From: Candidatus Hydrogenedentota bacterium
GTDB lineage: Bacteria > Hydrogenedentota > Hydrogenedentia > Hydrogenedentales > SLHB01
NCBI GenBank assembly: GCA_963745075.1
Contig: CAVUWV010000008.1
Span: forward strand, 448,001-512,000
Length of the DNA stretch: 64,000 nt
Reading direction: 5' to 3'
In this document: positions 11,638-29,922 of the stretch, piece by piece
Numbering within the stretch: the first letter of the stretch is position 1
Layout of the letters: every line of letters begins with the position of its first letter
Notes under the pieces: generated by a model
What the model was told of the DNA's origin: nothing
Databases searched by the model: none
Seen by the model: only the letters and a program-made list of their open reading frames with translations
Position numbers and translations under genes: made by a program

Positions 11638-11661
11638 ATAGCCTGTCTATTCCCGGATTTC

Positions 11662-11716
11662 ATTACCATTTGGTAATCGATTCGCAAGGTCGTAATCATT
11701 CCGAAAACGGTATACT
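11662..11716 (+). promoter_or_regulatory. Putative response-regulator box ATTAC-N6-GTAAT plus -10 TATACT
   Basis: ATTACCATTTGGTAAT palindrome at 11662-11677; TATACT at 11711-11716. Confidence 0.55.
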
Positions 11717-11803
11717 TCCACTGTAAGCATGGCGCGAAACCACGCGCTACCCCAATGGTCTCCTTCCAGACCCCCGAACGTACGAATTGGAGGAATCCCT
11801 CGA

Positions 11804-12364
11804 ATGGAGCGATATCGCAGTATCTTCAAGGTGCGCGGGCTGCTGATGGTCCCGCCGGTGCTTTTTGTGTTGTTGGTGAATTTCGGCGAGTACGAACACG
11901 ACTGGCTGGTCTTGCCCATTGGATATGGCATCTTCCTCGCGGGGGTGGCCCTGCGAGTCTGGGCGCAGATGCATCTGCATTACCGGTTAAGCGTGCGCAA
12001 GAACCTGACCAACACAGGGCCCTATGCATTTGTGCGCAATCCCATCTACATTGCAAACACCACGATGCTGCTGGGGTTGACGGTGGCGTCGGAAGTGCTT
12101 TGGTTTCTGCCCGTCATGCTGGCATGGTGCGTCGTCGTGTACCACTTTGTCGTGCGGTACGAAGAGGCCCATCTCAGGGTGAAATATGGGGACGCGTACC
12201 GCGCGTTCATGGAACAAACACCGCGATGGCTGCCGCGCGTCCCCGCGGAACGGGCGGTTGGCGCCCATACGATGCGGCGGTTTCTGAAGCCGAGTATCGT
12301 GGCTGAACTGCACTGCTTTCTGTTGCTGGTGCCGTTTGTGCTGAAAGAGATCATCGAACGCTGA
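11804..12364 (+). CDS. Isoprenylcysteine carboxyl methyltransferase / PEMT family membrane protein
   Basis: LTNTGPYAFVRNPIY and EEAHLRVKYGDAYRAF motifs; ATG after GGAGG (alternative start 11729). Confidence 0.85.
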   Translation: MERYRSIFKVRGLLMVPPVLFVLLVNFGEYEHDWLVLPIGYGIFLAGVALRVWAQMHLHYRLSVRKNLTNTGPYAFVRNPIYIANTTMLLGLTVASEVLWFLPVMLAWCVVVYHFVVRYEEAHLRVKYGDAYRAFMEQTPRWLPRVPAERAVGAHTMRRFLKPSIVAELHCFLLLVPFVLKEIIER

Positions 12365-12445
12365 CATGGACCGACACGGACGCGGGACGAAGATCCACGC
12401 GGAATTGACTCACCGCCGTTCGCAGCACATACTCGACTCCGGTAA

Positions 12446-14401
12446 ATGACCTACATCGCGAACGGGGAATTCCTGATGATTGGTACGATCGTATCGATGT
12501 TGTCCGTGCTGTGCGCGGCGGGTGCGCCGCAGAGCCTGGGGCAATTGTCGAACGGGATCGTGCGGGTGGATCTCGCGGCGACAGCGCAGGGGGCGCCGTA
12601 CGTTGCGGCATGGTTCTGGGAGCAGGACGGTGCGGTGGCGCTGCGGACGGATTCGCCGCCGGTATGGGACGGGTGGCCGGATTTGGAGCCGGGCACGGCG
12701 CAGGTCGAGGTGGATGCCGGCGACCTGGTGACGCGGGCGACGATTGTGCGCGTGGCCGATCCGAACGTAACGCTGCGCTGGGTCGTGGAACTGGTCCGCG
12801 ATACGGCGATGGTGCGACTGCATGCGGCGATCGAAAACACGGGCGCTGTGCCGTTGAAGGTCCCGTCGTTTCCGATCTGGTCCGGCAACTGGACCGTGCC
12901 GGGCGCGTCACGGATCACTTGGTGGAAGGCGCTGAGTTACGAACCAGTCTCACGGAACCTTGACGGCGACGTCTCGCTGGAAATGGCCAGCCGGCTCCAC
13001 AGTTCGGACACGCGGCTCAGCGAGGGGGTGAATCCCTATTGGCAAATCGCGAACGCCGCGGGGCAGCTTTACTTCGCGCTGGAATGGTGCGGCGGTTGGG
13101 CGGCGAGCCTGGATGCACGGGGCGACAATCTTCGGTTTCAATGGTTTCTCCCGAAGGATGAAACGCAGTTGGTGCTGGCGCCGGGTGAAACGGTGGACGG
13201 TCCAATCCTGTGCGTGACGCCCACGCGCGGCGCGTCGGAGGCGCTGTGCCGGCAGTCGTGGATGAATCAGCGCACGCGCTACGCGGCGCAACGGTACCAC
13301 GGGCCCGAACCGCGCTACGTGTTTACGTACAACCACTGGTACACGACGCGGTTCGATCTTACGGCAGATTTTTTGCGGCGGCAAGCCGAGTTGGCGCCGC
13401 CGTTCGGGTTCGACTTCTTCATCATCGACGCGGGCTGGTACCAGGCCCCGGGAAAGTGGTGGCCAGACCCGAAGAAGTTCGTGCAAGGCGAATTCGAGAC
13501 CATCCTGGGCCAAGTGCGGCAGGAGGGCATCCCGACCGGGATCTGGACCTGTCCCCAGTTCGTGCAGGACGGGGACGATCCGCGCGTGGACCAGCCCGGC
13601 GTCTACGAAAAATTTATCGACGGGCATTTGCTCGACTTGGCGGGGTGCGACTTTTCGGAGCTGTTGACGGACCACGTGGCGAAACTACGGTCCCGGTACG
13701 GAGCGAGCTGGTGGAAATACGACCAGCTCCTGTTTGCGGAGGAGACGCGGGCGGGTGTCATGCGCAATGTAATCGCGTTTCAAGACGCGCTCACCGCCGT
13801 GCGCGAGGCCAACCCCGATCTCTTCATCGAGAACTGCCAAAGCGGCGGGCGTATGGTGAATGAATTCACCGCGCTTATCACGCAGAGTCAGTGGCTACGC
13901 GACGGCGGCGGCAACGGGCTCGAACACGCGCGCGGCAATTTTGCGCAAGCCCTCGGCGCGGTCCAATTTCTTCCGCCCTGGACGGCGAATCGTTGGACGA
14001 ACAATCCCGGGCGCATGAACGACGCAAGTCCAGAGTTGTTGCGGTACTACTGCCGGAGCGCCATGGCTGGAACGTGGGGCCTCGTTGCGGATCTCGCGGA
14101 ACTCACGGACGATCAGCGCGCCGTCATTCTCGACGAGATCGCGAACTACCGCCGGTTCAACGCGATCAAGAAGGACAATCTCTATGCGATCGTCTATCCG
14201 CATGACGGCGCGGACTTCGCCGCGATCGCGTGCTTCACTGCGGACGGTACGCAGGCCGCGGCGCTGGTGCTTCGCTGGGACGCGGACGGCGCCTTTGAGG
14301 CGCGGATTCCGACGCCGTATTTGCAGGGGGATGAGCGGGACGTGGTGGTTCGGTTTGGTGCGGGGGAATTAAGTCGGCTCGTGTTTTCGGAAGCGGGCTG
14401 A
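12446..14401 (+). CDS. Alpha-galactosidase-like glycoside hydrolase (clan D, GH36/GH27-like), probably secreted
   Basis: YNHWY, FIIDAGWY, WWKYD (nucleophile), IENCQSGGR motifs; exact start uncertain. Confidence 0.75.
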   Translation: MTYIANGEFLMIGTIVSMLSVLCAAGAPQSLGQLSNGIVRVDLAATAQGAPYVAAWFWEQDGAVALRTDSPPVWDGWPDLEPGTAQVEVDAGDLVTRATIVRVADPNVTLRWVVELVRDTAMVRLHAAIENTGAVPLKVPSFPIWSGNWTVPGASRITWWKALSYEPVSRNLDGDVSLEMASRLHSSDTRLSEGVNPYWQIANAAGQLYFALEWCGGWAASLDARGDNLRFQWFLPKDETQLVLAPGETVDGPILCVTPTRGASEALCRQSWMNQRTRYAAQRYHGPEPRYVFTYNHWYTTRFDLTADFLRRQAELAPPFGFDFFIIDAGWYQAPGKWWPDPKKFVQGEFETILGQVRQEGIPTGIWTCPQFVQDGDDPRVDQPGVYEKFIDGHLLDLAGCDFSELLTDHVAKLRSRYGASWWKYDQLLFAEETRAGVMRNVIAFQDALTAVREANPDLFIENCQSGGRMVNEFTALITQSQWLRDGGGNGLEHARGNFAQALGAVQFLPPWTANRWTNNPGRMNDASPELLRYYCRSAMAGTWGLVADLAELTDDQRAVILDEIANYRRFNAIKKDNLYAIVYPHDGADFAAIACFTADGTQAAALVLRWDADGAFEARIPTPYLQGDERDVVVRFGAGELSRLVFSEAG

Positions 14402-15062: not shown

Positions 15063-15425
15063 TCAGATGTTTCCTTTGGCCTGCTTCACCAGACGGTTGA
15101 TCCAGAGGTCGATGTAGTCGCCGCCGACTTCGGCGATAACATTGATGCCTTGGGTGCGGCCGAAGGTGACGGCGGCGTCGCGGGCGAGTTCACGGGCGCG
15201 GCGGCGTTCGGCGGAGGTGAGCTTGCCGTCTTCGCTGGCTTCTTTGATGGCGCGGACGTAGGTCTGGTAGGTCTGGTCGACGCCGGCTTCGAGGGCGGAT
15301 ATGGCCTGGGCGTAGCGACGCTCTTTGGCCCGCTGGTACCAGTCCCGGGATTTGAAGAAGGTCCAGGCGGCGCCGAAAACGGTGCCGAGAAGGGTGATGC
15401 TGGTATCGGAGACGAGAGATTCCAT
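15063..15425 (-). CDS. Holin-like protein (LL-H-type architecture)
   Basis: Single N-terminal TM, AISALEAGVDQTYQTYVRAIKEASEDGKLT helix, last gene of cluster; AAGGAG RBS. Confidence 0.55.
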   Translation of the reverse strand: MESLVSDTSITLLGTVFGAAWTFFKSRDWYQRAKERRYAQAISALEAGVDQTYQTYVRAIKEASEDGKLTSAERRRARELARDAAVTFGRTQGINVIAEVGGDYIDLWINRLVKQAKGNI

Positions 15426-15594: not shown

Positions 15595-16116
15595 CTACAA
15601 GAAGGTTCGGGCGTCGATAATGTAGCCGTTGATGGCGTCGTCGGTGTTTTTGATGGCGGCCATGCCAGGGCGCACATAGAGGTGCGCGAGGGCGAGGGCA
15701 TTGCTCGACGGGCTCGGCGCGACGGGCGACGCGGCTTCGGCGCCGGGGACGATGCTGATATCCCAGGTTTCGAGACGGGCTTGCACGAGATCGATGCGGG
15801 GGTTCGTCGTGGGCGGCGTGACGTCGGGCGTGGCGGTCTCGGATTCGAGGCGGTACGGGAAGCGCCCGATAAAGGCGTAGCCAGGTTTCACGTTCACGGA
15901 CAGGCCGGGCACGTCCGCGGCGACAACTTTCAGATCGTCCGTCGCGGCTTTTCGAATGACGCCGTCGCCGCCGCCCCAGGCCTGGCTGAGCAGGAAGTGG
16001 ATGAGTTCGAGGGCGGCCTCGATGCGGTCGTCCCAGGAGTTGAGTTTGGACGAGGCGACGGGGCGTTCCGCAAAGGTCCAGGAGGTCTTGGTGTAGGCTT
16101 TGCCTTTGATCGCCAT
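15595..16116 (-). CDS. Baseplate/tail-fibre-anchor-like protein
   Basis: LKVVAADVPGLSVNVKPGYAFI...RIDLVQARL...LALAHLYV...IIDARTF pattern resembles N-terminal domains of phage tail/receptor-binding proteins; follows Tal-like gene. Confidence 0.6.
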   Translation of the reverse strand: MAIKGKAYTKTSWTFAERPVASSKLNSWDDRIEAALELIHFLLSQAWGGGDGVIRKAATDDLKVVAADVPGLSVNVKPGYAFIGRFPYRLESETATPDVTPPTTNPRIDLVQARLETWDISIVPGAEAASPVAPSPSSNALALAHLYVRPGMAAIKNTDDAINGYIIDARTFL

Positions 16117-16144: not shown

Positions 16145-17899
16145 CTAGTCGAGGTGGTAGCCGGCGTCGAGACCGACGTCGTCCGCATCGAGGCGGAACT
16201 GGAAGAGCTCCGTTTCGCGGGGTTGGCTGCGGACGGTGAAACTGAGCGGATTGGCGACGGAACGCAGCGGGGACGTAAATCGGATACGGGTTTGGAGGTG
16301 CGCGCCGGAGAAACGGTGGACGATTTCCTTCACGCGGGCGACAAGCACGCCGGGAAACCGGTCGCCCCATTCACCGTCGACTTCGCGGTCGAGACGGCGG
16401 AGGACGCCACCGCGAAGTTCGACGAGATCGCCTACGGACACGTCCGCAAACCCGTCGTAGTATTCCACTTCGTCGGAGGGCTCGGGATAGGCGATGTCGT
16501 CGAGGAGGCCTTCGACGAGTTTGTCGGCGTCCTCTTCGAGGGAGATGCCGAAGTGATCGAGCGAGCGGGCGTAGAACCCGAAAGCGTCGATACTCGCGCC
16601 GGCCCAATAGGTCTTTTCCAGTGTGCCGGTGATGGGATTGCCATCGAAGTAAACGGCGTTGATGAGGTCGCTTGAATCGGACCCGAGTGTCACGCCCATG
16701 CGCGTGGGATCGAAGAACCAAACGCGGTCGGGGCGTGTAGCTCGGCGAAAGCTTACGCGTAGCTCCGGATCGATGGACCAGATGAAACCACCCGCGGCAT
16801 AGGCCAGCGCGGTAAGTGCTTCGAGGACGCCGCCGGACGCGTCGAAGTTCACGAGAGAGACGCTCGTGCTGTCGACGGAGTCTGCCTTTGGGCCGGGGTA
16901 TGAGAAGAAATCCTTCAGCTCCATCTCAGGCACAAGGCATTGGCCGTCTTCGTAGAGATAGACTTCGGCGAGTCCCTGTTCAACGAGGGCGGCGTTGAAA
17001 CATTCGCCGCCGCCGAAGACGAGGCCGAGGTAGCGACCGTAGACGTCAACGCGATCGTCGAATGCGCCGCTTGCGTCGCGATGGGGGTTTAGTTCGATGA
17101 AGTCGATACCCTTGGTGTCGATGAGCGACTGCAACGCGGCCGTCGCGGCGTCCGCCTTCAATTTGTAGCCGCTCGCGTTGTATCGGTCGGTGGTCCAGTC
17201 TGCGACTTCTGGGTGGCGCGCGATGGCGTGCGAGTTCTTGTCGGTCTCCTCGGCATCGATGAGCATGAGGCGGACGTCGGGCCAAGGCGCGCCATCCACT
17301 TCGATGCCCGCGATAGTGTCGCCGTCTTTGGCGTAGGCATTGGTGAGGTCGAGTCGATCGCTGCCGACCCATTGGCCCGCGTCGATACCACCGTTTGCGA
17401 GTTCGTTCGTGTCCGTCTTACGTGCGAGGAATTTCTGGTATTCGCGCGCGGCGCCGTCAGGGTAGGCCGTGTGGGCGACGGTGTAGTGAATTGCACCCGG
17501 CGCGCTTTGGACGGCGTCTTTGACGATGGCGTCGATGCTGCGGTTCGTGTAGACGCGGGAAATCGTGGTGTTGCCGTCAAGGGGATCGCGCGCGGCGGCG
17601 AACTCGATGATTTCGTGGAACGTGACGTATTTCTCGAGAATGAGTTTGCGCGTTTCGCTCCATTGCGGTGCGATCTCCGTGACGGGCGCTTCGCAGAAAA
17701 GTTGCCCGTCGATCAACACACGCACCCGATAGCCGTGGCCAAGATCGGTGATACCTTCGGGCAACAGGCCGCGTACCCGATCCGCATCGCCGGGCCAGGT
17801 ACGGATTGCTTCCAGTAACGGCACGTCCGCGTAGCGCCCGATGCGCCGGCCTTCCGTGTCATAGATTTCGATAGCGTAGTTCACGTCAATCACCACCAC
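16145..17899 (-). CDS. Tal/baseplate-hub-like tail protein with inserted staphylococcal nuclease (thermonuclease) domain
   Basis: Follows Dit-like gene; internal KDGDTI..VRLMLIDAEET..DVYGRYLG..FNAALVEQGLAEVY; start may be 17893 or 17884. Confidence 0.75.
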   Translation of the reverse strand: MVVIDVNYAIEIYDTEGRRIGRYADVPLLEAIRTWPGDADRVRGLLPEGITDLGHGYRVRVLIDGQLFCEAPVTEIAPQWSETRKLILEKYVTFHEIIEFAAARDPLDGNTTISRVYTNRSIDAIVKDAVQSAPGAIHYTVAHTAYPDGAAREYQKFLARKTDTNELANGGIDAGQWVGSDRLDLTNAYAKDGDTIAGIEVDGAPWPDVRLMLIDAEETDKNSHAIARHPEVADWTTDRYNASGYKLKADAATAALQSLIDTKGIDFIELNPHRDASGAFDDRVDVYGRYLGLVFGGGECFNAALVEQGLAEVYLYEDGQCLVPEMELKDFFSYPGPKADSVDSTSVSLVNFDASGGVLEALTALAYAAGGFIWSIDPELRVSFRRATRPDRVWFFDPTRMGVTLGSDSSDLINAVYFDGNPITGTLEKTYWAGASIDAFGFYARSLDHFGISLEEDADKLVEGLLDDIAYPEPSDEVEYYDGFADVSVGDLVELRGGVLRRLDREVDGEWGDRFPGVLVARVKEIVHRFSGAHLQTRIRFTSPLRSVANPLSFTVRSQPRETELFQFRLDADDVGLDAGYHLD

Positions 17900-18576
17900 C
17901 GGTCGTGGACCGACACGACCGCTTCAGCGTCGTGGGAGCTGGCAGGATCGTCGGTGTAGGTTAGCGTCGTCCCTTCCGGTGCGATCTCGGGGAAAAGACC
18001 GGTCGTGTAGGGCGTCACGTCGACGCCGTCGAGGGTGACGCGGGAATTCGGCCCGTCAAAGATCAGCACGGACGCGGAGGACACAACGCCATTGTAAAGG
18101 ATGCTCCAGATACCATCAGAAATGGACGGATTGATGAGATTGTCGTTTGCGGTGATTGTGATTGCCGGTACGGAGGTGTAGTTACCGCCGGCGGATACGA
18201 CAAGGGTCGCGCCGGAGGCGTTGATGGGCCAGTTCTCGCTCGTGGGATCGACGGACCGCTCGTAAGGATCGCGGGCGTGGAGTTTCAATGTGAAGTTGCC
18301 GACGCGGGCGTCGTTCGCGATCTCGCGTTTGAACTCCGTGCGGCGGACGTAGAGTTCGCGGTCCGTGCGAATGGAGAGCGCGGCGGTGTAATCCTCCGAG
18401 GACACCGCGTCGAGAATGGCGTCGAGTTTGGTTTCGATAGCGGCGGCGGTGGACTCGCCCACGATGAGTCCGGCGATCTCGATGACGCGCTCGCGGCGGC
18501 CGCCGACTTCCTGGTGCGTCTCACGGACCGTGGTGTGGGCGGGATCGAAGGTGTGGTTTCCCAGCGTAATGGCCAC
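17890..18576 (-). CDS. Distal-tail (Dit)-like protein
   Basis: FTLKLHARDPY, GNYTSVPAITIT, LINPSI, GLFPEIAPEG and C-terminal DRWW resemble siphophage Dit; GTG start with GGAGG RBS. Confidence 0.6.
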   Translation of the reverse strand: MAITLGNHTFDPAHTTVRETHQEVGGRRERVIEIAGLIVGESTAAAIETKLDAILDAVSSEDYTAALSIRTDRELYVRRTEFKREIANDARVGNFTLKLHARDPYERSVDPTSENWPINASGATLVVSAGGNYTSVPAITITANDNLINPSISDGIWSILYNGVVSSASVLIFDGPNSRVTLDGVDVTPYTTGLFPEIAPEGTTLTYTDDPASSHDAEAVVSVHDRWW

Positions 18577-18579
18577 GGG

Positions 18580-18996
18580 TTAGTCCTCCCCGAGGATGGG
18601 GGTCGAACCGGTCGCGTCGGCGGGGATGCGGGCAGGGGCATCGCGGAGGTACGGTTCGAGGACGTACCACGCCTGCTTTTCCGTGAGGGCCGCGACGCCG
18701 GTCAGTGCGCGGAAGCGGTTGCCATCCTCGACGCGTTGGCCGCCGATAGCGACGTTTTTCTGGGCGAAGGCGTCGTGGGCCGCAAGGGACCGGAAGAGGT
18801 ACGCACCCGCGAGCAGAGTTTCGCCGGAGACGAGACCGGGGTCGGGGGATTCGGTGTCGACGTCGGGATCGATCTGGCGGAGGATGTTGCGGTGCGCGTC
18901 GTCGATGGCGGCGACGACGAGGTCCTGGGGGACGGCGACGGTGTCGTTGAGCTGGAATTTGAGGCGGACATCGGCTTCGGTGGTGAAGTTGGGCAT
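18580..18996 (-). CDS. Head-tail connector/adaptor-like protein
   Basis: 138 aa helical protein directly after the capsid gene, FTTEADVR N-terminus; GGAGG RBS. Confidence 0.6.
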   Translation of the reverse strand: MPNFTTEADVRLKFQLNDTVAVPQDLVVAAIDDAHRNILRQIDPDVDTESPDPGLVSGETLLAGAYLFRSLAAHDAFAQKNVAIGGQRVEDGNRFRALTGVAALTEKQAWYVLEPYLRDAPARIPADATGSTPILGED

Positions 18997-19177: not shown

Positions 19178-20227
19178 TTAGGACCAGTCGCTTTGGACGA
19201 CGACGCGGGCGTCTTTGTAGATCACGGCGAAGTCGGTGACGACCGTGAGGTAGGTGCGGTCCCACTGCTGGTTGATGAGTTTGTCGTTCTCGACGAGCAG
19301 GTCCTGTTCGGTGAGTTTCTGGACCGTGTATCCGGCGTCGAGGATAGTCAGTTTATCCGTGGGCTGATCGACCATGGGAACGAGACGCACGCCGAGTGGA
19401 GTGGGCAGGTTGCCGGTCTTCGCGAAGTCGAAGAGGACGGCATCCTTGAGTTCGGTGAGTCCCAGGATGGTTTGCGCCAGCGCCGAGTTTGCCAGCATGT
19501 GGGTGGGCGTGAAGTACTTGTCCAGCGTCAGGGTCATGAACCCTTTGACGATGTCCGCGTAGGTCCACGTGTCGGCGGTGGCGGTGTTCACCGTGGGCGC
19601 CGCCGTGCCGCTGCCAGACGAATCGCCGCTGACAAGGACCGTGGCCAGGCGCGCATCGAGATTGCGACCGAGGCGTTCGCCGATGCGTTGCAAGTGGACG
19701 CGGAGCATGTCGACGGACATGCGGCGGATGACTTCGTAGGACGCGACCACGCCGCGGCCTTTCTTGTCGAGGCGGACGATGCGGTCGCCGTAGGTGATCT
19801 CCGATTCAGGGATCGCGGCGCCTTCGGCGACGGTGCGCAGTTCCTCTTCGGCGGACGCTTCGTCGACGTAGGGCACATCGTAGGCCGTGCTCGATACGGG
19901 TTCGTCGCGGATGATGAGTTCGGGGTAGACCGGCTTGCGCTTGAGACCGGAAACGACGGCCTCCCGCACGATGTCGGGAAAGAGCCATTTCGCGTTGGGG
20001 TCGCTCTGGAAGAAGCGGTCGACGGTAATGCGGTGTACGTCGACGCCGAATTCCTGGGCGCAGTAGTCGGTAAGGGTGGTGCCGAGGGCGCGAAAGTACT
20101 GCCCGTGGGTCAGGCCGAGGGCGCCGAGGGTGTCGTACAAGTCGTGGCCGCGCGTCTGGCGGAGCCGGTCGGGCTCCTGGCTCAGGAACGCGAGGCGTTC
20201 TTTGACGTTGTCGTCGCGGTAGGGCAT
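19178..20227 (-). CDS. Major capsid protein (HK97 fold)
   Basis: 349 aa; LFPDIVREAV, VAEGAAIPESEI, LDKKGRGVVASYEVIRRMSVD, LVENDKLINQQWD; position in head operon. Confidence 0.88.
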   Translation of the reverse strand: MPYRDDNVKERLAFLSQEPDRLRQTRGHDLYDTLGALGLTHGQYFRALGTTLTDYCAQEFGVDVHRITVDRFFQSDPNAKWLFPDIVREAVVSGLKRKPVYPELIIRDEPVSSTAYDVPYVDEASAEEELRTVAEGAAIPESEITYGDRIVRLDKKGRGVVASYEVIRRMSVDMLRVHLQRIGERLGRNLDARLATVLVSGDSSGSGTAAPTVNTATADTWTYADIVKGFMTLTLDKYFTPTHMLANSALAQTILGLTELKDAVLFDFAKTGNLPTPLGVRLVPMVDQPTDKLTILDAGYTVQKLTEQDLLVENDKLINQQWDRTYLTVVTDFAVIYKDARVVVQSDWS

Positions 20228-20336: not shown

Positions 20337-20717
20337 TTAGAGCAGAACGTGAACCTTGCTTGCTCCGCTGTCGACTTTGAGGTTGCGGCCGACGCCGTTG
20401 CCGGAGGCGGGGGCTTTGACGGTGCCGTCGGTGGCGGAGGCGAGAATGCCGGCCTCGCCGTCGACGGTGGGCGCGGAGCCCGTGTAGGTGAAGATGCAAA
20501 TGCCACGGACCTTGATGGGAATTGCGACGCCGTTGTCGTCGGCGTCCGCCAGGGCTTGGCCGAAGACCACGTCTTCGTCGTCGGTGGCATTGTTCACTTC
20601 ATAGGCGCCGGTGAGCTTGACGGCGTCGCCCGCGGCGATGTCGATGGTGCCGCTGGCGGGGGTTTTGCAGGTGATGACGAGTTCGGTGACCGAACCGCCT
20701 ACGTCTCCGTATGCCAT
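20337..20717 (-). CDS. Capsid decoration/cement protein (DUF2190-like)
   Basis: 126 aa beta-rich, IAAGDAVKLTG..FGQALAD..IKVRG; immediately upstream of the capsid gene. Confidence 0.65.
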   Translation of the reverse strand: MAYGDVGGSVTELVITCKTPASGTIDIAAGDAVKLTGAYEVNNATDDEDVVFGQALADADDNGVAIPIKVRGICIFTYTGSAPTVDGEAGILASATDGTVKAPASGNGVGRNLKVDSGASKVHVLL

Positions 20718-20960: not shown

Positions 20961-21656
20961 TTACGCCGGGTCGCGGAGGATCGTCATGGCGCGATTTTGG
21001 TCTCGCGTGGTCTGTGTCAGCGGCTCCGGTCTGGATGTGGGGCTCGGGGGATATTTGTTGTCGAACCGGATCTCGTAGGCGCGGAGGTGGACATGGATCT
21101 CGTCGAGGGAGAGTTGGGCGAGGGTCCGGCGCCAGAGCGTGTCGTCGAAGGACGGGCCGTCGAGTTCGCGGCCGAGCCCGCAGAAACGTTCGATGGCGCG
21201 GGTGCGGGCGGTTGCGCCGTCGGTGATGAGGCGAGCGGCGTCGTGTTCGCGCGCGCCGGCTTCGTCCAGGGCGTGGCGGATGTCCCGGACGGCGGCGGGG
21301 GGCAGGCCGTCGACGCGGCGTGCGCGGATGACGCGGGATTCGCCGTTGCTGTGGAGGACAAGGGCGCGCTCGTCTTCGGTGGATTCAAGCCAGTGGTAGG
21401 TGCCTGCTTCGAGGCAAATGGCGTCGCCGGGCTGGTTGAGCCAGCGGAGATCGTGGGGCGCTTTTTCGGTCGCCCAGGGCTTGCCGTCGAGAGCGGTGGC
21501 GTCGATGCGCCAGCCGGTGAGGCAATCGCCGAATTCGAGGCGCAGATCGAGGTGGGCGCCGATGGCGTCGCGGTGGCGGTGGATGACGTAGCGGCCGTCT
21601 GGGGTGGTTGGGCGCAACGTGGAATCGGGGGTTTCGGTGGTGAGGGTCCAGTACAT
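20961..21656 (-). CDS. LigD-type 3'-phosphoesterase domain fused to a helical scaffold-like C-terminus
   Basis: RYVIHRHRDAIGAHLDLRLE..LTGWRI..KAPHDLRW..EAGTY resembles PE-domain FVxQxH..HxDxRLE..W..H..GTY; AAAGGA RBS before ATG 21656. Confidence 0.65.
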   Translation of the reverse strand: MYWTLTTETPDSTLRPTTPDGRYVIHRHRDAIGAHLDLRLEFGDCLTGWRIDATALDGKPWATEKAPHDLRWLNQPGDAICLEAGTYHWLESTEDERALVLHSNGESRVIRARRVDGLPPAAVRDIRHALDEAGAREHDAARLITDGATARTRAIERFCGLGRELDGPSFDDTLWRRTLAQLSLDEIHVHLRAYEIRFDNKYPPSPTSRPEPLTQTTRDQNRAMTILRDPA

Positions 21657-21739: not shown

Positions 21740-21952
21740 TTACGCGTGAAGCAGCTGCTGGCCGAGGGAAATGACCACCGCGACGAGGTTGGCGACAAGG
21801 AGGAGGACGCCTCGTGCGAGCGTGGTTTCGAGGTCTTGGACCCGCGCTTTCAGTTCCTTGATGTCTTCGGCGAGGTTGTTGACCTGAATCTCGTAGACGA
21901 TGCCGTATGGGCAGCGTTCCGTGTCGCAGGGGGCGGTTGCGTTGCTATTCAT
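21740..21952 (-). CDS. Small coiled-coil plus C-terminal TM protein (70 aa)
   Basis: LAEDIKELKARVQDLETTL coiled coil then GVLLLVANLVAVVISLG; start overlaps the protease stop. Confidence 0.6.
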   Translation of the reverse strand: MNSNATAPCDTERCPYGIVYEIQVNNLAEDIKELKARVQDLETTLARGVLLLVANLVAVVISLGQQLLHA

Positions 21953-22644
21953 GGGACCACCATTTGCGGGGGCAAAGTTCGATGGGTTCGTGGTAGGCGT
22001 CGCGGGCGACTTTGAGAGCTTGGTCGAGGGGGAGCGTGCGTTTGGCGCGTTCGGCTGCGACGAAGCCGGTGCCCTGCGAACCGGAGGAGACGACGGAGCC
22101 TTCAATAACTTCGAGGACGTTGCGCATGATGTAGTGGCATTGGTGATCTCCGTAGGTCTTGCCGGGGACGTGGTCGCAAGTGCGGAGGTCTTTTGCGCAG
22201 ATCGAGCATTCGGGTGTTTCGAAGGAAAAGCCGATGGAGGTCTCGCGATACACGCCGCCCTCGATGTTCAGGATGAAGTCGGCGTTGTCCTGGGTGCGGA
22301 GCACGTAGAACGTCGGGCCGCACGGCGACGCGCGCGCCGTCGTGATGGAGCTGGGATCGGAAGAAAGTGCCGCGCGGCAACGAACCGCGCAGATCGTGGC
22401 GCTCCATCAGCGGACGGCCTGGGGTCATGGCGCTGATCGTTTCGAGTTCGTCGTCGGGGAAGCGGCTGTGGTGCCGGTCGATCTGGTTGTGGCAGAGGTC
22501 GAGGGTGAAGACCGCGAACTCGTGCGGTTCGAGGGGGCGCAGGGCGAAGCGGTTGACCTCAGCGGCGCTGCTGTCGTCATCGGCGCGGGCGCGGACGGCG
22601 ATGAGGGCGCCTTCGCGGCGGAATACAAAGGGATCGAGATCCAT
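21945..22644 (-). CDS. Prohead maturation protease-like protein with Cys/His motif, split by one extra base at ~22309
   Basis: LCHNQIDRHHSRF..MERHD..VRPDV / YVLRTQDNADFILNIEGGVYRETSIGF..CSIC..CDH..CHY..EGSVVSSGSQ; removing one base (GACGTTCTAC to GACGTCTAC on the minus strand) joins both ORFs. Confidence 0.7.
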
Positions 22645-23064: not shown

Positions 23065-24324
23065 CTATCCGATGCCGAGGGTTTTGGCGGCTTCTTCGTG
23101 GGTGAGGAAACCGTTTTCGCGGAGTTGGACGGCGTTGGCGATCTCGCGCTGGCGGGCGGTGGCTTCTTTGAGCACGTCGACGGTGCGGTTGGCGCGCACA
23201 TGGACGCGGGCCTCGGCGTAACCCCACATGAGCGCGAGTTCGAAGTTGTAGAGCCGTTCGAGGATGCGTTTGACGCTGCGGTTGACGGCCTCAACGTGGC
23301 GGTTGATGATTTCGAACTGGGCGGTGCCGTAGGTTTCGGTGGTGCCGTAGTTGCGGCCGAGGAGGATCGGCATGAGGTGCATGCCGGTGATCACCTGTTC
23401 CTCGATGGCCTTGTGGTTGTCGTAAAAGATCTGCGCGTGTTGGTCGCCGCGAATGAGATTGACGCGCACGTTGTCGAAGGTGACGAAATTCTGATCCGCT
23501 TCGAGTCCGGACAAGCGATCCCGCAGCAGATCGAAGTTGCCCTGGATGCGTTCTTCATAGGCCTCGGCGGATTCGCCGCGGGCGCGTTCGTCGGCGGTGT
23601 ATTGGACGTGGAGTTTGGACCAGCCGGCGTTGTGGGTGGCTTTGGCCATATCTTCGAGGAGGCGCTGCTGGATCTTCACGACGAAGGGGATAGACCGCAG
23701 CATGGAGCGGCCGTAGGGATTGGTGCCGTCGCGATCGAGACCGACGTAGATGAACCGTTCGGGCGGCAAGGGGATGGCCTCGCCGTCGAGGATCTGGTAG
23801 GGCCGGAGAAGCCCGTCCTCACGGCGGAAGCGAACGGTCCAGACGTCGACGGGGAGGACGTCGAAGATGGATTCGCGGCTCTGAGAAAGCACGATCTCGA
23901 CCGCGGCGGCACCGTAGGTGAAGAGCGAGGTGTAAAACACATCGAGGAGACCGTCCATGCCGCGGTCGCCGGAATTCACGCGCCTGTCGAGTTCGTGGAG
24001 GAGGCGTTGCGCGCGGCGTTTGGCGGCGTCGGACGACGGGTTGAGGATCTCGATGTCGTAGCCGGTCTGGCAGAGGCGTTTCCAGGTCCAGACGGCGTCG
24101 GAGATGTCGGGGATGGCGTCGCGCAGGAAGCGGTAGACCTGGAGCATGCCGAAGGGCGTATCGTTGGGGAGGGCGACGAACTCGCGGGGAATGCCCTGAA
24201 AGGCGCGCTGGTCTTCGGCGAGGGACGCGGGGAACAGGGCGCCGCCGCGCTCGCGGGTGGTGAAGGTTTCGGCGCGGGGCGCGGGCTTTGGGGGGCGGCG
24301 GAGGCGTTGGAACCAGTGGAGCAT
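23065..24324 (-). CDS. Phage portal protein
   Basis: About 420 aa; YRFLRDAIPDISDAV, YGAAAVEIV, NPYGRSMLRSIPF, ILLGRNYGTTET, GFLTHEEAAKTLG; first gene of head operon. Confidence 0.8.
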   Translation of the reverse strand: MLHWFQRLRRPPKPAPRAETFTTRERGGALFPASLAEDQRAFQGIPREFVALPNDTPFGMLQVYRFLRDAIPDISDAVWTWKRLCQTGYDIEILNPSSDAAKRRAQRLLHELDRRVNSGDRGMDGLLDVFYTSLFTYGAAAVEIVLSQSRESIFDVLPVDVWTVRFRREDGLLRPYQILDGEAIPLPPERFIYVGLDRDGTNPYGRSMLRSIPFVVKIQQRLLEDMAKATHNAGWSKLHVQYTADERARGESAEAYEERIQGNFDLLRDRLSGLEADQNFVTFDNVRVNLIRGDQHAQIFYDNHKAIEEQVITGMHLMPILLGRNYGTTETYGTAQFEIINRHVEAVNRSVKRILERLYNFELALMWGYAEARVHVRANRTVDVLKEATARQREIANAVQLRENGFLTHEEAAKTLGIG

Positions 24325-24580
24325 ATCGGGGTGATCCTCAGGTGTTGGTTTCATTGGTTAGGCACGGGGCGTTGCATGGAGAAGGCTGGAGACCGGAGTC
24401 CGGAGGCTGGAAGGGACAGAGGCGCAGCCAGGACATAGGTAACAGACTCGGACTGACACGGACGACCGAGACGGCCGCATGCTGGTGCTAGTGCTTGGGT
24501 AGGTGATGGGGTCGAAAAGATTTGGGAAATGGCTCATAATTAGAGGATTCCTTTGGGATATGACCGTGGAGGGCTGGATA

Positions 24581-27500
24581 GTGCGGTGGATTCGAATGAC
24601 GTGGTGTTTGGTGGCGGCGGTTGGCGTAGCGCTGGCGGCGGTGGGCCAGGAGGGGAACGTCAAGGCGTGGGAAGGGGAAATCACCATTCCCACGTATCCC
24701 ATCTATGGCGCGGACGTGAATCCGAAGATTTACGAGCTGGAAGGGTCCATCGTCTACCCTTACACGATGCAAGACCATTTGACGACGATCAAGGAGGACC
24801 GGACGTACCGGGCGGTCTGCCTGGAAAACGAGTATCTGAAGGTGACGTGTTTGCCGCAGCTCGGGGGCCGCATCCATTCCGTGCTCGACAAGACGACCGG
24901 CGAGCAGATGTTTCACCTGAACCACGTGATCAAACCGGGGCTGATCGCCATGCGGGGGGCGTGGATCTCGGGCGGGATCGAATGGAACCGGGGACCGCAG
25001 GGACATACGGTGACGAGTTTCGCGCCGGTCAACGTCACGTCACGGCCGAACCCGGACGGGTCGGCGTCGCTGGTGATTGGGTATACGGAGGCGAATTTTC
25101 ACACGCGGTGGAACGTCACGCTGACGTTGCGGCCGGGCAAGGCCTATTTGGACGAAGCCATCCGCATTTACAACCCGACCGACGGCACGCACAGCTTTTA
25201 TTTCTGGAACAACACGGCGTTCCCGTGCGAGCCTGGGACGCGGTTTATCTATCCCATGACGCTGGGGACGGACCATGCGGGCACGACGTTCTTTCATTGG
25301 CCGATCGACAACGGACGCGATTTGACGTGGCTGAAGAACTACGATAAGCCCACATCGGTGTTCGCGTACGAGTGCGCCTTCGATTTCTTTGGCGCGTACG
25401 ACGTGGACCGCGATCGCGGAATCGTGCAGTACGGGAATCATGAAATCGTTACGGGCAAGAAGGCGTGGACTTGGGGGCAGTCGGGTGACGGGCTGGCGAG
25501 CCAGGCGGCGTTGACGGACGATGACGGTCCGTATATCGAGGTGCAAAGTGGGCCGTTGCGGACGCAAGCGGACTACGGACTGTTGGGGCCGCACGAAGAG
25601 ATTGCCTGGCGGGAGTGGTGGTATCCCGTGCACGGGTTGGGCGACGGGTTCGAGTACGCGACGCAGGACGCGGCGGTGCAGACCTACCGCAACGATGGCG
25701 ATCTCGAGGTGCGGGTGCTGACGACCGGCGTGTACGACGGCGCAAAATGCACGTTTTCGCGGGACGGCCAGACGATTGGCGCGAATGCGGTGGACCTGTC
25801 GCCCATGAAACCGGTGGTGATGAAGCAGGCAGGGGCAGCGGACCGACCGGTGCAGATTCGCGTCGAAAGCGCAGCCGGCGCGGTGCTCGCCGAGTACACG
25901 TCGCCGCTGCCGATTCCGGAGCGGACGCCGCCGGCGAAGACGGAAGCCGATCCGGTCGATACGGCAGAGGAAGCGTGGCTGGAAGGCGTCACTGCGGAGG
26001 AACGCATCCAACGCACCAACGCGCGGGCAGCCTACGAACGGGCGCTGACGTTTGACCCCGGATTCGTGCCGGCGTTGCGGTCGCTGGCCGTGCTGGATCT
26101 CGAGGCCGGATTGTACGACGACGCGGCGGAAGGACTGGAACAGGCACTGAAACGGAACCCGGAAGACGGGATGTCGTGGTATTACCTTGGCGTCGCGCGG
26201 CTGAAACAGGACCGGTTGGACGAAGCGGAGTCCTGCGGATACCGCGTAATCGACCAACTGGACGAGCGGTCGTTGGGATACGATCTGGTCGGGCGGGCCT
26301 TGATGCGGCAAGGAAAATACGCGGACGCCGTGCCTGCATTCAGGCAGGCGATGACGTTGAACCCGACGGATTCGCGCGCACGGGATCATTGGTTGACGGC
26401 ATTACACGGCGCGGGCGAACACCAACAATTGCTGGACGGGGTTGCCGCCGCGCACGCCGCGGATCCCTTGGACTTCGTGACCGGCGCGCTGGTTGCGCTG
26501 CAAGATCCGAGTTATTTGCCCGGTTTCATCGACGAGATGAAAGGGACGATGGGACCGTACCAGTCGGAGATGATCCGGTTGTCGCTCTATTTTGACGATT
26601 TGGGGTTGACCCGTGAGGCGTTTCAGTTGTTGGACGCGGCATACGCGAGATTCGCCCCGGCGGTACACCAGATTACCTACTATCCGGGAAAGCCTCCGGT
26701 GGACCTGCGGGATCGGCCGTTGCCCTGGTACGTGATGGCGTACTACGCGAGCAAGTTGAACTTGCAGAACGAGGAAACGCGCTGTCTGCGCAAATCACAA
26801 ACCGTCTACGGAAACTACGCCTTCCCGTCGCAACCAGTGTACGAGCGCATACTGAAACATGCGATCGAGAAGAATCCCGAGGATTCGCGGGCACATTTGT
26901 ATCTCGGCAACCTGTACGGGGGCCTTGGGCGCTTGGACGAGGCCAAAGCGGAATGGGAAGCGGCGGCGGCACTACCGGGCGCGCTCAGCGTCGCGTACCG
27001 GAATCTCGGTTTGTACGCGTGGAAGAAGGACGAGGACCTGTCGAAGGCGGAAAGACTGTACCAGCAGGCGATTGCGGCTTTCCCGGGGGATCAAACCTTA
27101 TACCGCGATGAGGCGAATATCCTGATCGCCGACAAAAAGCCGGACGAAGCGATTGCGGTCCTGGAAGGCATGCCGTTGAATCGGGCGCGGCGCGGTGACG
27201 TGACGGTATTGCTGGCGCGGACGTATAACGACGTGCACCGGTACGACGACACGATCGCGTTGCTGGACGACGCTTTCTTCTCGAACTGGGAGAACAACAG
27301 CCTATCATGGCGCGTGTGGTCACAGGCACATGTCGAGCGCGGCAAACAGCGGATGGACGCGGGTGACGCGAAATCCGCGCTGACGGATTTTGAAGCGGCG
27401 TTGACCTATCCCGAGAATCTCGGCGTGGGCCGTCCGGCGGACCCGGAAGAAGCGGAGGTCTTGTTCTGGAAGGGCAAGGCCTTGGCTGCGCTGAACCGGA

Positions 27501-27616
27501 TGGATGAAGCGAAGGCGACGTGGCAGTCCGGCGCGGGCGGCCACGCAGGCTCGGATACACAGAACGAGTATGTGAAGCGGTGCAAGGAGGCACTGGCGGC
27601 GGGCGCGCAGGCGTAG
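24581..27616 (+). CDS. DUF5107 domain plus TPR-repeat secreted protein
   Basis: LENEYLKVTCLPQLGGRI, WISGGIEWN, YIEVQSG motifs then many TPRs; start uncertain (24503-24596). Confidence 0.85.
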   Translation: MRWIRMTWCLVAAVGVALAAVGQEGNVKAWEGEITIPTYPIYGADVNPKIYELEGSIVYPYTMQDHLTTIKEDRTYRAVCLENEYLKVTCLPQLGGRIHSVLDKTTGEQMFHLNHVIKPGLIAMRGAWISGGIEWNRGPQGHTVTSFAPVNVTSRPNPDGSASLVIGYTEANFHTRWNVTLTLRPGKAYLDEAIRIYNPTDGTHSFYFWNNTAFPCEPGTRFIYPMTLGTDHAGTTFFHWPIDNGRDLTWLKNYDKPTSVFAYECAFDFFGAYDVDRDRGIVQYGNHEIVTGKKAWTWGQSGDGLASQAALTDDDGPYIEVQSGPLRTQADYGLLGPHEEIAWREWWYPVHGLGDGFEYATQDAAVQTYRNDGDLEVRVLTTGVYDGAKCTFSRDGQTIGANAVDLSPMKPVVMKQAGAADRPVQIRVESAAGAVLAEYTSPLPIPERTPPAKTEADPVDTAEEAWLEGVTAEERIQRTNARAAYERALTFDPGFVPALRSLAVLDLEAGLYDDAAEGLEQALKRNPEDGMSWYYLGVARLKQDRLDEAESCGYRVIDQLDERSLGYDLVGRALMRQGKYADAVPAFRQAMTLNPTDSRARDHWLTALHGAGEHQQLLDGVAAAHAADPLDFVTGALVALQDPSYLPGFIDEMKGTMGPYQSEMIRLSLYFDDLGLTREAFQLLDAAYARFAPAVHQITYYPGKPPVDLRDRPLPWYVMAYYASKLNLQNEETRCLRKSQTVYGNYAFPSQPVYERILKHAIEKNPEDSRAHLYLGNLYGGLGRLDEAKAEWEAAAALPGALSVAYRNLGLYAWKKDEDLSKAERLYQQAIAAFPGDQTLYRDEANILIADKKPDEAIAVLEGMPLNRARRGDVTVLLARTYNDVHRYDDTIALLDDAFFSNWENNSLSWRVWSQAHVERGKQRMDAGDAKSALTDFEAALTYPENLGVGRPADPEEAEVLFWKGKALAALNRMDEAKATWQSGAGGHAGSDTQNEYVKRCKEALAAGAQA

Positions 27617-27760
27617 AAGAAACCTGCACGGACGAACGCGGACGATCGGGCGCGATACTGGCTGCGAGAACACGAGAGACATAGGATTCGAGAGAACCGG
27701 CGCGGGCGGTGAATGACCGTAAGCGGCTCCCGCGGCAAGCCGGTTCCCTGATGATGGAAC

Positions 27761-29854
27761 ATGATTGATACGAGAAGTTATTGGTGGTTTGGCGCGGCGA
27801 TCGCGCTGGCCGTAGTTGTGGTGTTGAGCGGCGGATGTTCCGGCGGTATATCGCTGAATGGCGCGACGCCCATTGACCTGAGTGCGCTCCCGCAGAAGCG
27901 GATCGAGATCGATCGGGACTGGCGGGACGTCCGCGTGGTTCCTGCCGGGGAACACGTGACGGATCTGGGAACGATCCCCGAGGGAGGCGCCGTACGGCTG
28001 GCTTTCTTCCCGAAAGGGATATCTCCGGAGTCGCCCTCGGTTGCGGTATTCGCCGGGGACACATTGGTGGAGCAACGGGCACCCGAAGATGCCGGGCACT
28101 GGAGCGATTGGCGGATCGATCTTGGGCCCTACAGCGGGCGGGATGTTTCGTGCAAGGTGGTGTTTTCCTCGAACTGCGACGTGTTTCTGGCGCATTGCGA
28201 ACTGGTTCCCCAGGCCGAGGCGCCGCCGAACGTGCTGGTGTTCTTGATCGACACACTGCGACCGGATCACCTGGGATGTTATGGGTACGATCGCGCGACG
28301 TCGCCGAACATCGACGCGTTGGCCGGGGACAGTCTGCGATTTGCGGAGATGATTTCGCAATCCTCGTGGACGCGGCCGGCGGTGGCATCCCTACTGACGA
28401 GCACTTACCCCTCCGTGCACGAAGCAAAGGATCGGTTGGATGTACTGCGCGCCGATTTGCCGACGCTGGCGGAGGTATTTCGCGATGCGGGATACGAGAC
28501 CCAGGGGTTCATGAGCAATCCGAACTGTGTTCCCGCGTGGGGGTTCGACCGGGGGTTCAATCGATTCATCGACATCGATTCGTACACGATCAAGCCGGGC
28601 AAGGACGAGGACACGGTGAACGCGGCACTCGCGGCGTTGGAGGAGGCCGCGGGCCGGCCGTGGTTCTTCTACATACACGTGGTGGGTCCGCATGAACCAT
28701 ATGAACCGCCGGTGCCATACGACGCGAAATTCACATCGGCGTCGGACGATGACCACGCCCGGGCCAAGGCGTTGTACGACGGTGAAATCGCGTTTACCGA
28801 CGTGCAGTTCGGACGCATCGTCGATACGTTGAAACGCTTGGGCATTTACGACAACACGTTGATCGTCGTGGTATCGGATCACGGCGAGGAATTCTGGGAA
28901 CACGGCGGGACCGGTCACGGGTCCACGCTGTTCGACGAGGAGATTCGCATTCCCTTTATCTTGAAACTGCCGCAGCAACAGGACGCGGGCAAGGCGGTGG
29001 ACGGGATATGCCAGATCATCGACGCGGGTCCGACGATTCTGGAGACGCTCGGTCTGACGATTCCGGCGTCGTTCCAGGGCACGACGTTGAGTGGGCTGGC
29101 CGCCGGGGAACCGCGCGCGCAACCGTATGCGTATTCGTCGTTGTTTTTTGACAAGTTCAGCGCGCACGGGGCCCGAAGCGAAGCGTTCAAGTATATCGAC
29201 GACGCCGCGCAGGACACGCGCGCGTGGTACGACCTCAATGCCGATCCCGGCGAGCAGCACCCCCTTGCCGATGCCCCTGACGGGCAGGCCGGGCTGGCGC
29301 GGCTCGCGTCGCAGATTGCCGCGAGCGGCAACGACGGTCTACACATTCTGGTGACGGGCAGTTTGGAGGAAAAACATACGATTGACGGTGTAGTCGAGGG
29401 CGAAGGGCTTGGGGCGTTCAGCCTGCGCTATCTTGCCGACAACGGTGAGGTGACGCGAACGGAGAAGGGGGTCGCGTTTCGGATTGTCACCAGCCCGGGA
29501 GAGAATGCTCCCTTCGACATTGTGAATTTCCATAAGGACAGCGCCGAACAGAACAACGCCGATGTGCGTATCGATGCGGATCCGGCGCAACCGTTGCGGA
29601 TTGCGATCGCGCTCGACGGGGTTCCGGCTCCGGCGGATATGGTGTTTGTGGGACCGAAGAAAATGCCGCGCGCGTTAAACGGCACGGAACTGCAGCCCAG
29701 TGAACTGGCCGCCGGTTCGGAAGGGTTCTTTCCCAGTGCGCTGCCGCGACGGTTGGCGGTCTACGTGTGGTACGCGCCCGGCGCCGATACGGTGTCGAAT
29801 GAGAACCTCGAGCCCGGCATGGCGGACGCGTTGAAGGCGTTGGGGTATTTGTAG
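27761..29854 (+). CDS. Sulfatase-like alkaline-phosphatase-superfamily hydrolase/transferase (Thr-type motif)
   Basis: IDTLRPDHLG, SWTRPAVASLLT, PHEPY, SDHGEEF, C-terminal LKALGYL. Confidence 0.88.
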   Translation: MIDTRSYWWFGAAIALAVVVVLSGGCSGGISLNGATPIDLSALPQKRIEIDRDWRDVRVVPAGEHVTDLGTIPEGGAVRLAFFPKGISPESPSVAVFAGDTLVEQRAPEDAGHWSDWRIDLGPYSGRDVSCKVVFSSNCDVFLAHCELVPQAEAPPNVLVFLIDTLRPDHLGCYGYDRATSPNIDALAGDSLRFAEMISQSSWTRPAVASLLTSTYPSVHEAKDRLDVLRADLPTLAEVFRDAGYETQGFMSNPNCVPAWGFDRGFNRFIDIDSYTIKPGKDEDTVNAALAALEEAAGRPWFFYIHVVGPHEPYEPPVPYDAKFTSASDDDHARAKALYDGEIAFTDVQFGRIVDTLKRLGIYDNTLIVVVSDHGEEFWEHGGTGHGSTLFDEEIRIPFILKLPQQQDAGKAVDGICQIIDAGPTILETLGLTIPASFQGTTLSGLAAGEPRAQPYAYSSLFFDKFSAHGARSEAFKYIDDAAQDTRAWYDLNADPGEQHPLADAPDGQAGLARLASQIAASGNDGLHILVTGSLEEKHTIDGVVEGEGLGAFSLRYLADNGEVTRTEKGVAFRIVTSPGENAPFDIVNFHKDSAEQNNADVRIDADPAQPLRIAIALDGVPAPADMVFVGPKKMPRALNGTELQPSELAAGSEGFFPSALPRRLAVYVWYAPGADTVSNENLEPGMADALKALGYL

Positions 29855-29922
29855 AGGAAACTCAGACGGGCACGGGCCTCACTGACGAGCGCGAACGCAT
29901 AGGGTTATCGACGGATCGAGGG

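Follow-up and report, generated by a model that had tools for sequence, protein, structure and literature searches.

The central hubs of phage tail tips, such as T4 gp27, Mu gp44, 80alpha Tal and T5 pb3, share their fold with VgrG and the spikes of contractile injection systems (CIS), and tail-tip hubs are known to carry wall-degrading or sugar-binding modules. Staphylococcal (micrococcal) nuclease (SNase), including the B. subtilis YncB type, combines an oligonucleotide/oligosaccharide-binding (OB) fold and helices with Ca2+ ligands, a general base and two arginines. In this study, we have analysed a 64,000-nucleotide stretch of a Candidatus Hydrogenedentota bacterium (assembly GCA_963745075.1, contig CAVUWV010000008.1, positions 448,001 to 512,000; hereafter the window), in which one gene of a phage-derived cluster, hub-SNase, brings these two protein types together. 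The encoded protein resembles the known hubs in its fold (Z 14-21), in its position after a Dit gene and in the habit of carrying an accessory enzyme. It differs from them in that the accessory is a nuclease and not a peptidoglycan hydrolase or carbohydrate-binding module, in that this accessory is internal rather than appended, and in that there is no tube to cap. The domain shares with SNase all the features listed above, but lies inside a virion protein and has a helical region between E218 and D285 that is ~27 residues longer than in the free secreted enzyme. The cluster as a whole recalls RcGTA-type gene transfer agents, which are likewise chromosomal, single-copy, phage-derived structural clusters with an order conserved across a lineage; unlike those, it has no terminase (in the cluster or the genome) and no tail tube or tape measure, and contains two nucleic-acid enzymes. 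We propose, with about an even chance of being right, that hub-SNase would be a tip-displayed, Ca2+-dependent extracellular nuclease on a host-owned particle.

A staphylococcal-nuclease domain inside a tail hub

The insert of this hub is a staphylococcal-nuclease domain. The protein (residues are numbered throughout on the 584-aa open reading frame, ORF) scores 27.8 bits against the Pfam SNase hidden Markov model PF00565, whose gathering cut-off is 21, over aa 209-317 (E 3.8e-6). It also matches PHROG 452, "endonuclease" (E 3.4e-6), and a phmmer search of the PDB returned SNase chains throughout the best 60 matches listed, with 1syb_A at the top (E 1.6e-5). In the phmmer alignment D192 and D194 pair with D19 and D21 of SNase, R210 with R35, D215 with D40, E218 with E43, and the segment D285-V-Y-G-R289 with D83-K-Y-G-R87. 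In SNase, D21 and D40 bind Ca2+, E43 is the general base, and R35 and R87 are the phosphate-binding arginines. An AlphaFold2 (AF2) model of the full protein, built from a 36-sequence alignment (predicted local distance difference test, pLDDT, 90.2; predicted template modelling score, pTM, 0.88), agrees with this assignment: aa 174-340 superpose on solved SNase structures with Z 11.8-12.0 and a root-mean-square deviation (rmsd) of 2.5-2.8 Å, 126-129 of ~136 residues being aligned. An earlier note on this DNA had claimed an intact SNase domain in which every catalytic and Ca2+-binding residue is matched, and this is borne out by PF00565, the alignment and the superposition. The motifs it quoted from the 16145-17899 protein, for which it named no strand, are all present in the minus-strand translation. 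Its span for the domain, 16958-17326, corresponds exactly to aa 192-314 and does hold the SNase, while the folded domain is somewhat larger (Table 1).

The carrier protein is, on its predicted structure, a central tail hub of the gp27/gp44/Tal type. In Foldseek, the PDB entries that match the AF2 model best are central hubs or spikes, either from phages or from contractile injection systems, with E down to 1.9e-11. Structural alignment with VIA-align gave Z 20.9 for the HFTV1 tail, 18.3 for the Streptomyces CIS, 16.8/15.4 for Mu gp44, 16.2 for the pyocin R2 hub, 14-15 for T4 gp27 and VgrG, and 13.9 for 80alpha Tal; ~290-320 residues are aligned in these matches, which span model positions 1..~570 and so cover several domains of the hub fold. 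Matches in BFVD are a tail endopeptidase, a 43 kDa tail protein and minor tail proteins. The gene lies directly after a Dit-like gene, and the Dit-hub order recurs in 66 of 70 loci, the misses falling at contig ends. The earlier description of a Tal/hub-like tail protein thus agrees with the fold of the regions flanking the insert and with the gene's position, and the OB-fold inserted in a gp27/Tal-like hub that the note had expected of a full-length model was found. We regard as firm the identification of the protein as a tail hub into which an intact SNase is inserted.

That the SNase domain is a true insertion after the first hub domain follows from the existence of orthologs without it. 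An exhaustive search of 1.84 billion cluster representatives yielded only 62 hub relatives, and two of them, P0148 (368 aa) and P0182 (369 aa), consist of the N- and C-terminal hub parts only; the stretch they lack is aa ~139-348. P0148 is the hub of genome G120, whose locus (L074) keeps the context of major capsid protein (MCP), o18580, Dit and hub, and the distant relatives P0182 and P0183 also have no insert. To the question of whether homologs keep the insert, raised earlier, the answer is mixed: most do, but orthologs without it exist in the same gene context. A conserved helical segment ahead of the nuclease (aa 139-173) forms part of the insert. The true start of the hub is probably the GTG at 17884, which aligns with the start of the homologs (these begin at the position of aa 6) and would give a 579-aa product, as in the homologs. 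At the other end of the protein, the FRLD..VGLD.GYHLD tail (aa 564-584, 16148-16210, minus strand) persists as far as P0182 and P0151, the remotest relatives without an insert; a trimer apex or a metal site is a possible reading of it.

Conservation of the active site and the proposed role

The active-site set of the insert (Table 1) is conserved in the main lineage. All eight sites are kept in 120 of 121 proteins recovered by a motif-blind, word-based search, the exception being R289H in P0080, and in an alignment of 30 homologs (58-85% identity) no catalytic or Ca2+-binding residue varies, save that R289 is His in one. A further count, 63 intact out of the 63 that cover six catalytic sites among 69 fetched loci, was set aside because the patterns used for retrieval already included DGDT and DxYG. 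When identity to the window is taken as the measure, no part of the hub protein has evolved more slowly than the insert. Across 31 intact loci with an MCP identity of 65-80%, the ratio of insert to MCP identity has a mean of 0.93 and a minimum of 0.85, against 0.66 for the hub scaffold. In the three genomes that have a dead site and an MCP, the ratio for the insert falls to 0.70, 0.77 and 0.79, and that for the scaffold, at 0.56-0.64, does not leave the range of the intact loci; the comparison has only these three dead-site genomes, and related genomes are not independent of one another. The constraint appears to have dropped specifically on the insert after active-site loss, which speaks for catalysis as the property under selection in the main lineage.

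Based on these data, we propose the following model. The hub would be the trimeric central hub of a particle made of capsid, portal, Dit ring and hub, with no tube, tape measure or terminase. The SNase domain sits in the loop after the first hub domain, and in the expected trimer geometry three copies would stand outside the tail tip. The domain would most likely be active as a Ca2+-dependent endo/exonuclease, kept inactive by the low Ca2+ of the producer's cytoplasm and switched on once the particle is outside, where the tip would cut the DNA or RNA that it meets, for example nucleic acid that is extracellular or bound to surfaces, at a target cell or in its surroundings. In this way the nuclease may fill the role that peptidoglycan hydrolases or depolymerases have on ordinary tail tips. 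SNase chemistry needs Ca2+ in the millimolar range, far above cytoplasmic levels. Because the enzyme would be silent in the producer, no inhibitor gene would be needed, and a nonspecific nuclease that combines a millimolar Ca2+ requirement with the lack of such a gene would fit an enzyme working outside the cell.

Several observations weigh against this proposal. In the phmmer alignment, K84 of SNase is replaced by Val in the hub insert. Among 13 divergent representatives (of 50% clusters) that cover all sites, four are intact, three carry one substitution and one is a misaligned fragment, and the other five (P0124, P0125, P0126, P0128, P0151) have lost at least two active-site residues. In 5 of 5 genomes of the phylum that a motif scan had missed, D194 is Arg and further residues are lost, while the insert is kept and the remainder of the cluster is intact; one genus has deleted the SNase insert. 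Since a sub-lineage keeps domain and cluster after losing the catalytic residues, the nuclease is dispensable, and catalysis would be accessory and not needed to build the particle; the SNase fold may also have a non-catalytic role. A last point concerns the window itself, where, by comparison with its closest ortholog (L002), the prohead-protease-like gene is interrupted by a single additional base at ~22310. This copy may make no particles, or there may be an assembly error at that position; 30 of 30 aligned protease orthologs are single ORFs. How often the nuclease was inactivated is not distinguished by a scaffold-only FastTree of 72 sequences, which is compatible with one event or several: its backbone supports are 0.18-0.79, one dead clade has a support of 0.99, and a group of eight (support 0.92) contains two intact members alongside six that are dead or nearly so.

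The same variants bear on a second explanation, namely that the domain is mainly a structural or binding module, an OB-fold serving as adhesin or nucleic-acid binder on the tip, with catalysis incidental. The long retention of the domain after catalytic loss is what this explanation would predict, and the conserved segment of aa 139-173 travels with the domain. It is at odds with the invariance of the catalytic and Ca2+-binding residues in the main lineage and with the sequel to their loss, where the constraint on the insert falls and one genus then deleted it. We consider it improbable.

The gene cluster in Hydrogenedentota

The hub gene is the ninth of 11 co-oriented genes on the minus strand, in a cluster of ~9.5 kb running from portal to hub (Table 1). 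The order is portal, prohead-protease-like gene, a ~70-aa ORF, a phosphoesterase-helical gene, cement-like gene, MCP, o18580, Dit, hub, o15595 and o15063. The stop codon of Dit lies 5 nt before the likely hub start. For several members the assignment is indirect. The prohead-protease gene, which we take to be one from its motifs, has a single family match, in PHROG; o18580 is a putative head-tail adaptor by position only; and o15063 may have a membrane or release function. Profile searches of the PDB gave no match for o18580 or the protease and none of significance for o15595, Pfam has no family for the orthologs of o18580 or of the protease, and a complex prediction of Dit with o18580 scored 0.00, which makes no call either way.

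Table 1. Features of the hub-SNase gene and the genes clustered with it; positions are those of the window and residues those of the hub-SNase ORF unless stated otherwise.
Feature	Positions	Strand	Residues	Remarks
Hub-SNase gene	16145..17899	minus		584-aa ORF, coordinates including the stop codon; translation read from 16148-17899
Hub N-terminal beta domain	17486..17884	minus	6-138	kept in insert-less orthologs; hub fold matches cover model 1..~570
Whole insert	16856..17485	minus	~139-348	missing from orthologs P0148/L074, P0182, P0183
Staphylococcal-nuclease fold domain	16880..17380	minus	174-340	by superposition of AF2 model, HMM and alignment
Active-site set of insert			D192, D194, T195, R210, D215, E218, D285, R289
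Hub C-terminal domains	16148..16855	minus	349-584	end in conserved FRLD..VGLD.GYHLD tail
Portal protein	23065..24354	minus		Portal_Mu 39.2 bits; phrog_3753 E 4e-47
Prohead-protease-like gene	21945..22644	minus		phrog_16951, sole family match
Small ~70-aa ORF	21740..21952	minus		coiled-coil-like middle, hydrophobic C-terminus; tblastn match in 15/70 loci
LigD-type 3'-phosphoesterase with helical C-terminal half	20961..21656	minus		domain at aa 43-143 of its own 254-aa ORF; scaffold slot
Small virion structural, cement-like protein	20337..20717	minus		phrog_4588 E 1.4e-8; L079 homolog matches Phage_cement_2 weakly
Major capsid protein (MCP)	19178..20227	minus		Phage_capsid_4 57.2 bits; phrog_3922 E 3.6e-52
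o18580	18580..18996	minus		138 aa from start common to orthologs; no family match
Dit-like distal tail protein	17890..18576	minus		228 aa; phrog_33 E 3.3e-12; SPP1_Dit 19.4 bits, below cut-off 25
o15595	15595..16116	minus		conserved 173-aa protein just after hub; weak "head/virion structural" PHROG matches
o15063	15063..15425	minus		~120 aa; N-terminal hydrophobic segment; weak holin PHROG match, E 0.012

Pfam and PHROG revealed no tail tube or tape measure and no evident immunity gene among the 11 genes, and this composition bears on a third explanation, a delivered nuclease toxin resembling a bacteriocin or an "evolved VgrG", in which the hub would enter the envelope of a competitor and the SNase would degrade its nucleic acids. 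Such a toxin would suit a host-owned, conserved cluster whose hub fold is that of VgrG and CIS spikes, which carry effector domains, and whose particle, having no terminase, probably has no genome to deliver. Inside a target, however, SNase would be poorly active at cytoplasmic Ca2+ levels; the domain has a mid-hub position and is not a detachable C-terminus, penetration would have no tube or sheath behind it, and a toxin would have to do without an immunity gene in the cluster. We therefore regard this explanation as unlikely, though worth keeping in view.

The hub gene is present in 90 of 135 Hydrogenedentota genomes, nearly always as a single copy (there is one in the window's own genome); the figure is 59 of 86 for high-quality genomes and 52 of 66 for genera. 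The cluster is found across 12 of the 15 families of the phylum, and two families are mostly without the hub (4 of 23 genomes in f3, 0 of 10 in f8). Hub identity to the window is 70-85% within the genus and 42-65% in the rest of the phylum, roughly tracking taxonomic rank. A tblastn survey of 70 loci found the same gene order everywhere, with misses mostly at contig ends (Dit in 66 loci, o18580 in 62, o15595 in 61, MCP in 55 and portal in 38), and flanking genes that the loci do not share (melibiase in 0 of 70, DUF5107 in 1 of 70). In the window the flanks (12446-14401 and 24503-32052) hold polysaccharide-degradation genes, namely melibiase, a DUF5107-TPR protein and two sulfatases. A search of 50,697 phage records returned no hub relative, and neither did a motif-based scan of IMG/VR; relatives of the MCP occur in 13 phage records at 24-33% identity. 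Since the cluster is present in so many genomes, in single copy, with a fixed order between differing flanks and without a relative in the phage or IMG/VR sets, we conclude from gene content and distribution that it would be a host-owned, phage-derived and vertically kept element. Some contigs that carry the cluster (L003, L008-L010, L014, L016, L020, L036, L046, L067) bear the titles Nitrospirales/Nitrospiraceae, Rhodothermaeota, Bathyarchaeia, Vicinamibacterales or Planctomycetota; such labels are probably placeholders or the result of mis-binning, because the cluster is otherwise confined to Hydrogenedentota.

This distribution speaks strongly against a decaying prophage remnant without present function. 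The frameshifted protease gene of the window, a hub gene elsewhere (G040:C480:6573-8312, = L035) with one internal TAG codon, and the missing terminase, tube and lysis genes could all be taken as signs of decay. Yet the same 11 genes stand in the same order across the phylum, with an MCP identity of 64-95% and with the active sites of two enzymes conserved, and we strongly disfavour this explanation as highly improbable.

Some loci differ in content from the window. An extra ORF of 400-570 aa lies between the protease and phosphoesterase genes in L019 (4633-6342), L036 (5165-6382), L009 (4248-5897) and others; its N-terminus is signal-like, its ends are conserved and its middle, rich in Gly/Thr, varies, which gives it a fibre- or decoration-like look. 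This ORF is not in the window. It was considered as a cryptic packaging ATPase and rejected, having no Walker A motif and no family match besides that N-terminus and variable middle. In a dead-SNase genome (L076), ~1.5 kb of extra sequence lies between o18580 and MCP (11656-13141), and there is a second copy of the cement-like gene (16571-16924).

The fourth gene of the cluster encodes the second nucleic-acid enzyme. A profile of its orthologs matches LigD 3'-phosphoesterase (PE) structures (3p43, E 3.5e-8; 3p4h, E 1.6e-6), and an AF2 model (pLDDT 88.5) matches all six PE entries with Z 8.6-11.8 (best rmsd 2.2 Å over 98 residues), the next unrelated structure reaching Z 6.4. The protein thus has the fold of LigD PE and its His/Asp/Arg/Glu set: H51, D53, H58, D60, R62, E64 and H91 line up with the PE motif, and none of them is replaced in any of 29 orthologs. 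It differs from LigD PE in scoring below the Pfam LigD_N cut-off (13.2 bits against 31.1 for the window copy; 23 of 29 orthologs match at E<=1, the best at 4.9e-6), in an invariant Trp in place of the Tyr after "HPL", in its fusion to a helical, scaffold-like half and in its place in a capsid cluster. It is a reasonable inference that the PE would be loaded into the head through this half, which is helical and occupies the scaffold slot.

Whether the two enzymes work together depends in part on packaging. In the window's genome (89.7% complete), Terminase_6N, TerL_ATPase, Terminase_6C, Terminase_3, TerL_nuclease and GpA_ATPase are all below cut-off, and so are the same families apart from TerL_ATPase, which was searched in that genome only, in four other genomes, two of them single-contig; a Podovirus_Gp16 search was uninformative, as its control itself gave no match. 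A point of comparison is L079 (1368-12916 of a metagenome contig), a distant, compact and tube-less relative of the cluster that is flanked by cellular genes, with identities of 39% for portal, 33% for MCP, 37% for o18580 and 26% for Dit. It combines a hub that has no insert with an M15 peptidase and a large terminase (phrog_38, E 3.9e-67), has its protease gene after Dit, and shows no phosphoesterase homolog; its cognate TerL is matched in no more than 3 of 135 genomes of the phylum, at 25-28% identity. Because L079 has a wall hydrolase (M15) beside a plain hub, the comparison suggests that the tip enzyme was exchanged.

These data bear on a fourth explanation, DNA processing for the particle, in which the SNase would replace the terminase nuclease and the PE would heal the 3'-phosphates. 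SNase leaves 3'-phosphate ends and LigD PE removes them, so that two complementary chemistries meet in one conserved cluster, and the terminase-bearing L079, a single relative, has neither enzyme. Nevertheless, no packaging ATPase was found in the genomes searched, tail-tip proteins usually join after head filling, and cytoplasmic Ca2+ would be too low. In addition, the PE active site stays intact in the dead-SNase genomes, which keep the cluster, and a cut-and-heal pairing of the two enzymes would thus not be obligatory. The suggestion in the earlier note that the SNase fragments DNA as a stand-in for the absent terminase nuclease is for these reasons disfavoured, and we consider DNA processing to be very unlikely. 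Its two other ideas, that the tip may digest extracellular DNA or deliver a nuclease toxin, are still candidates.

Significance of a proposed host-kept particle with a tip nuclease

The proposal of an extracellular tip nuclease can be extended to the particle as a whole. It may represent a new class of domesticated virus-like particle, one that has given up packaging and wall breaching to become a nucleic-acid-processing machine, with three Ca2+-gated nucleases at its tip and a PE brought into the head by scaffold fusion, and that would attack, harvest or process foreign or extracellular DNA and RNA; we put this extension forward tentatively and think it possible rather than probable. The parts of the literature that our full-text searches reached contained no description of a tail-tip or virion nuclease of the SNase type, and nothing relevant on gene transfer agents or prophage capsids in Hydrogenedentota.

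In conclusion, a conserved tip nuclease with an intact-looking catalytic site would add a new type to the enzymes borne by virions. Experimental controls are already at hand in the natural variants, both those with a dead site and those without the insert. Finally, a particle that is kept by its hosts across a phylum, without packaging motor or tube, raises the testable question of what purpose a capsid plus a tip would serve.

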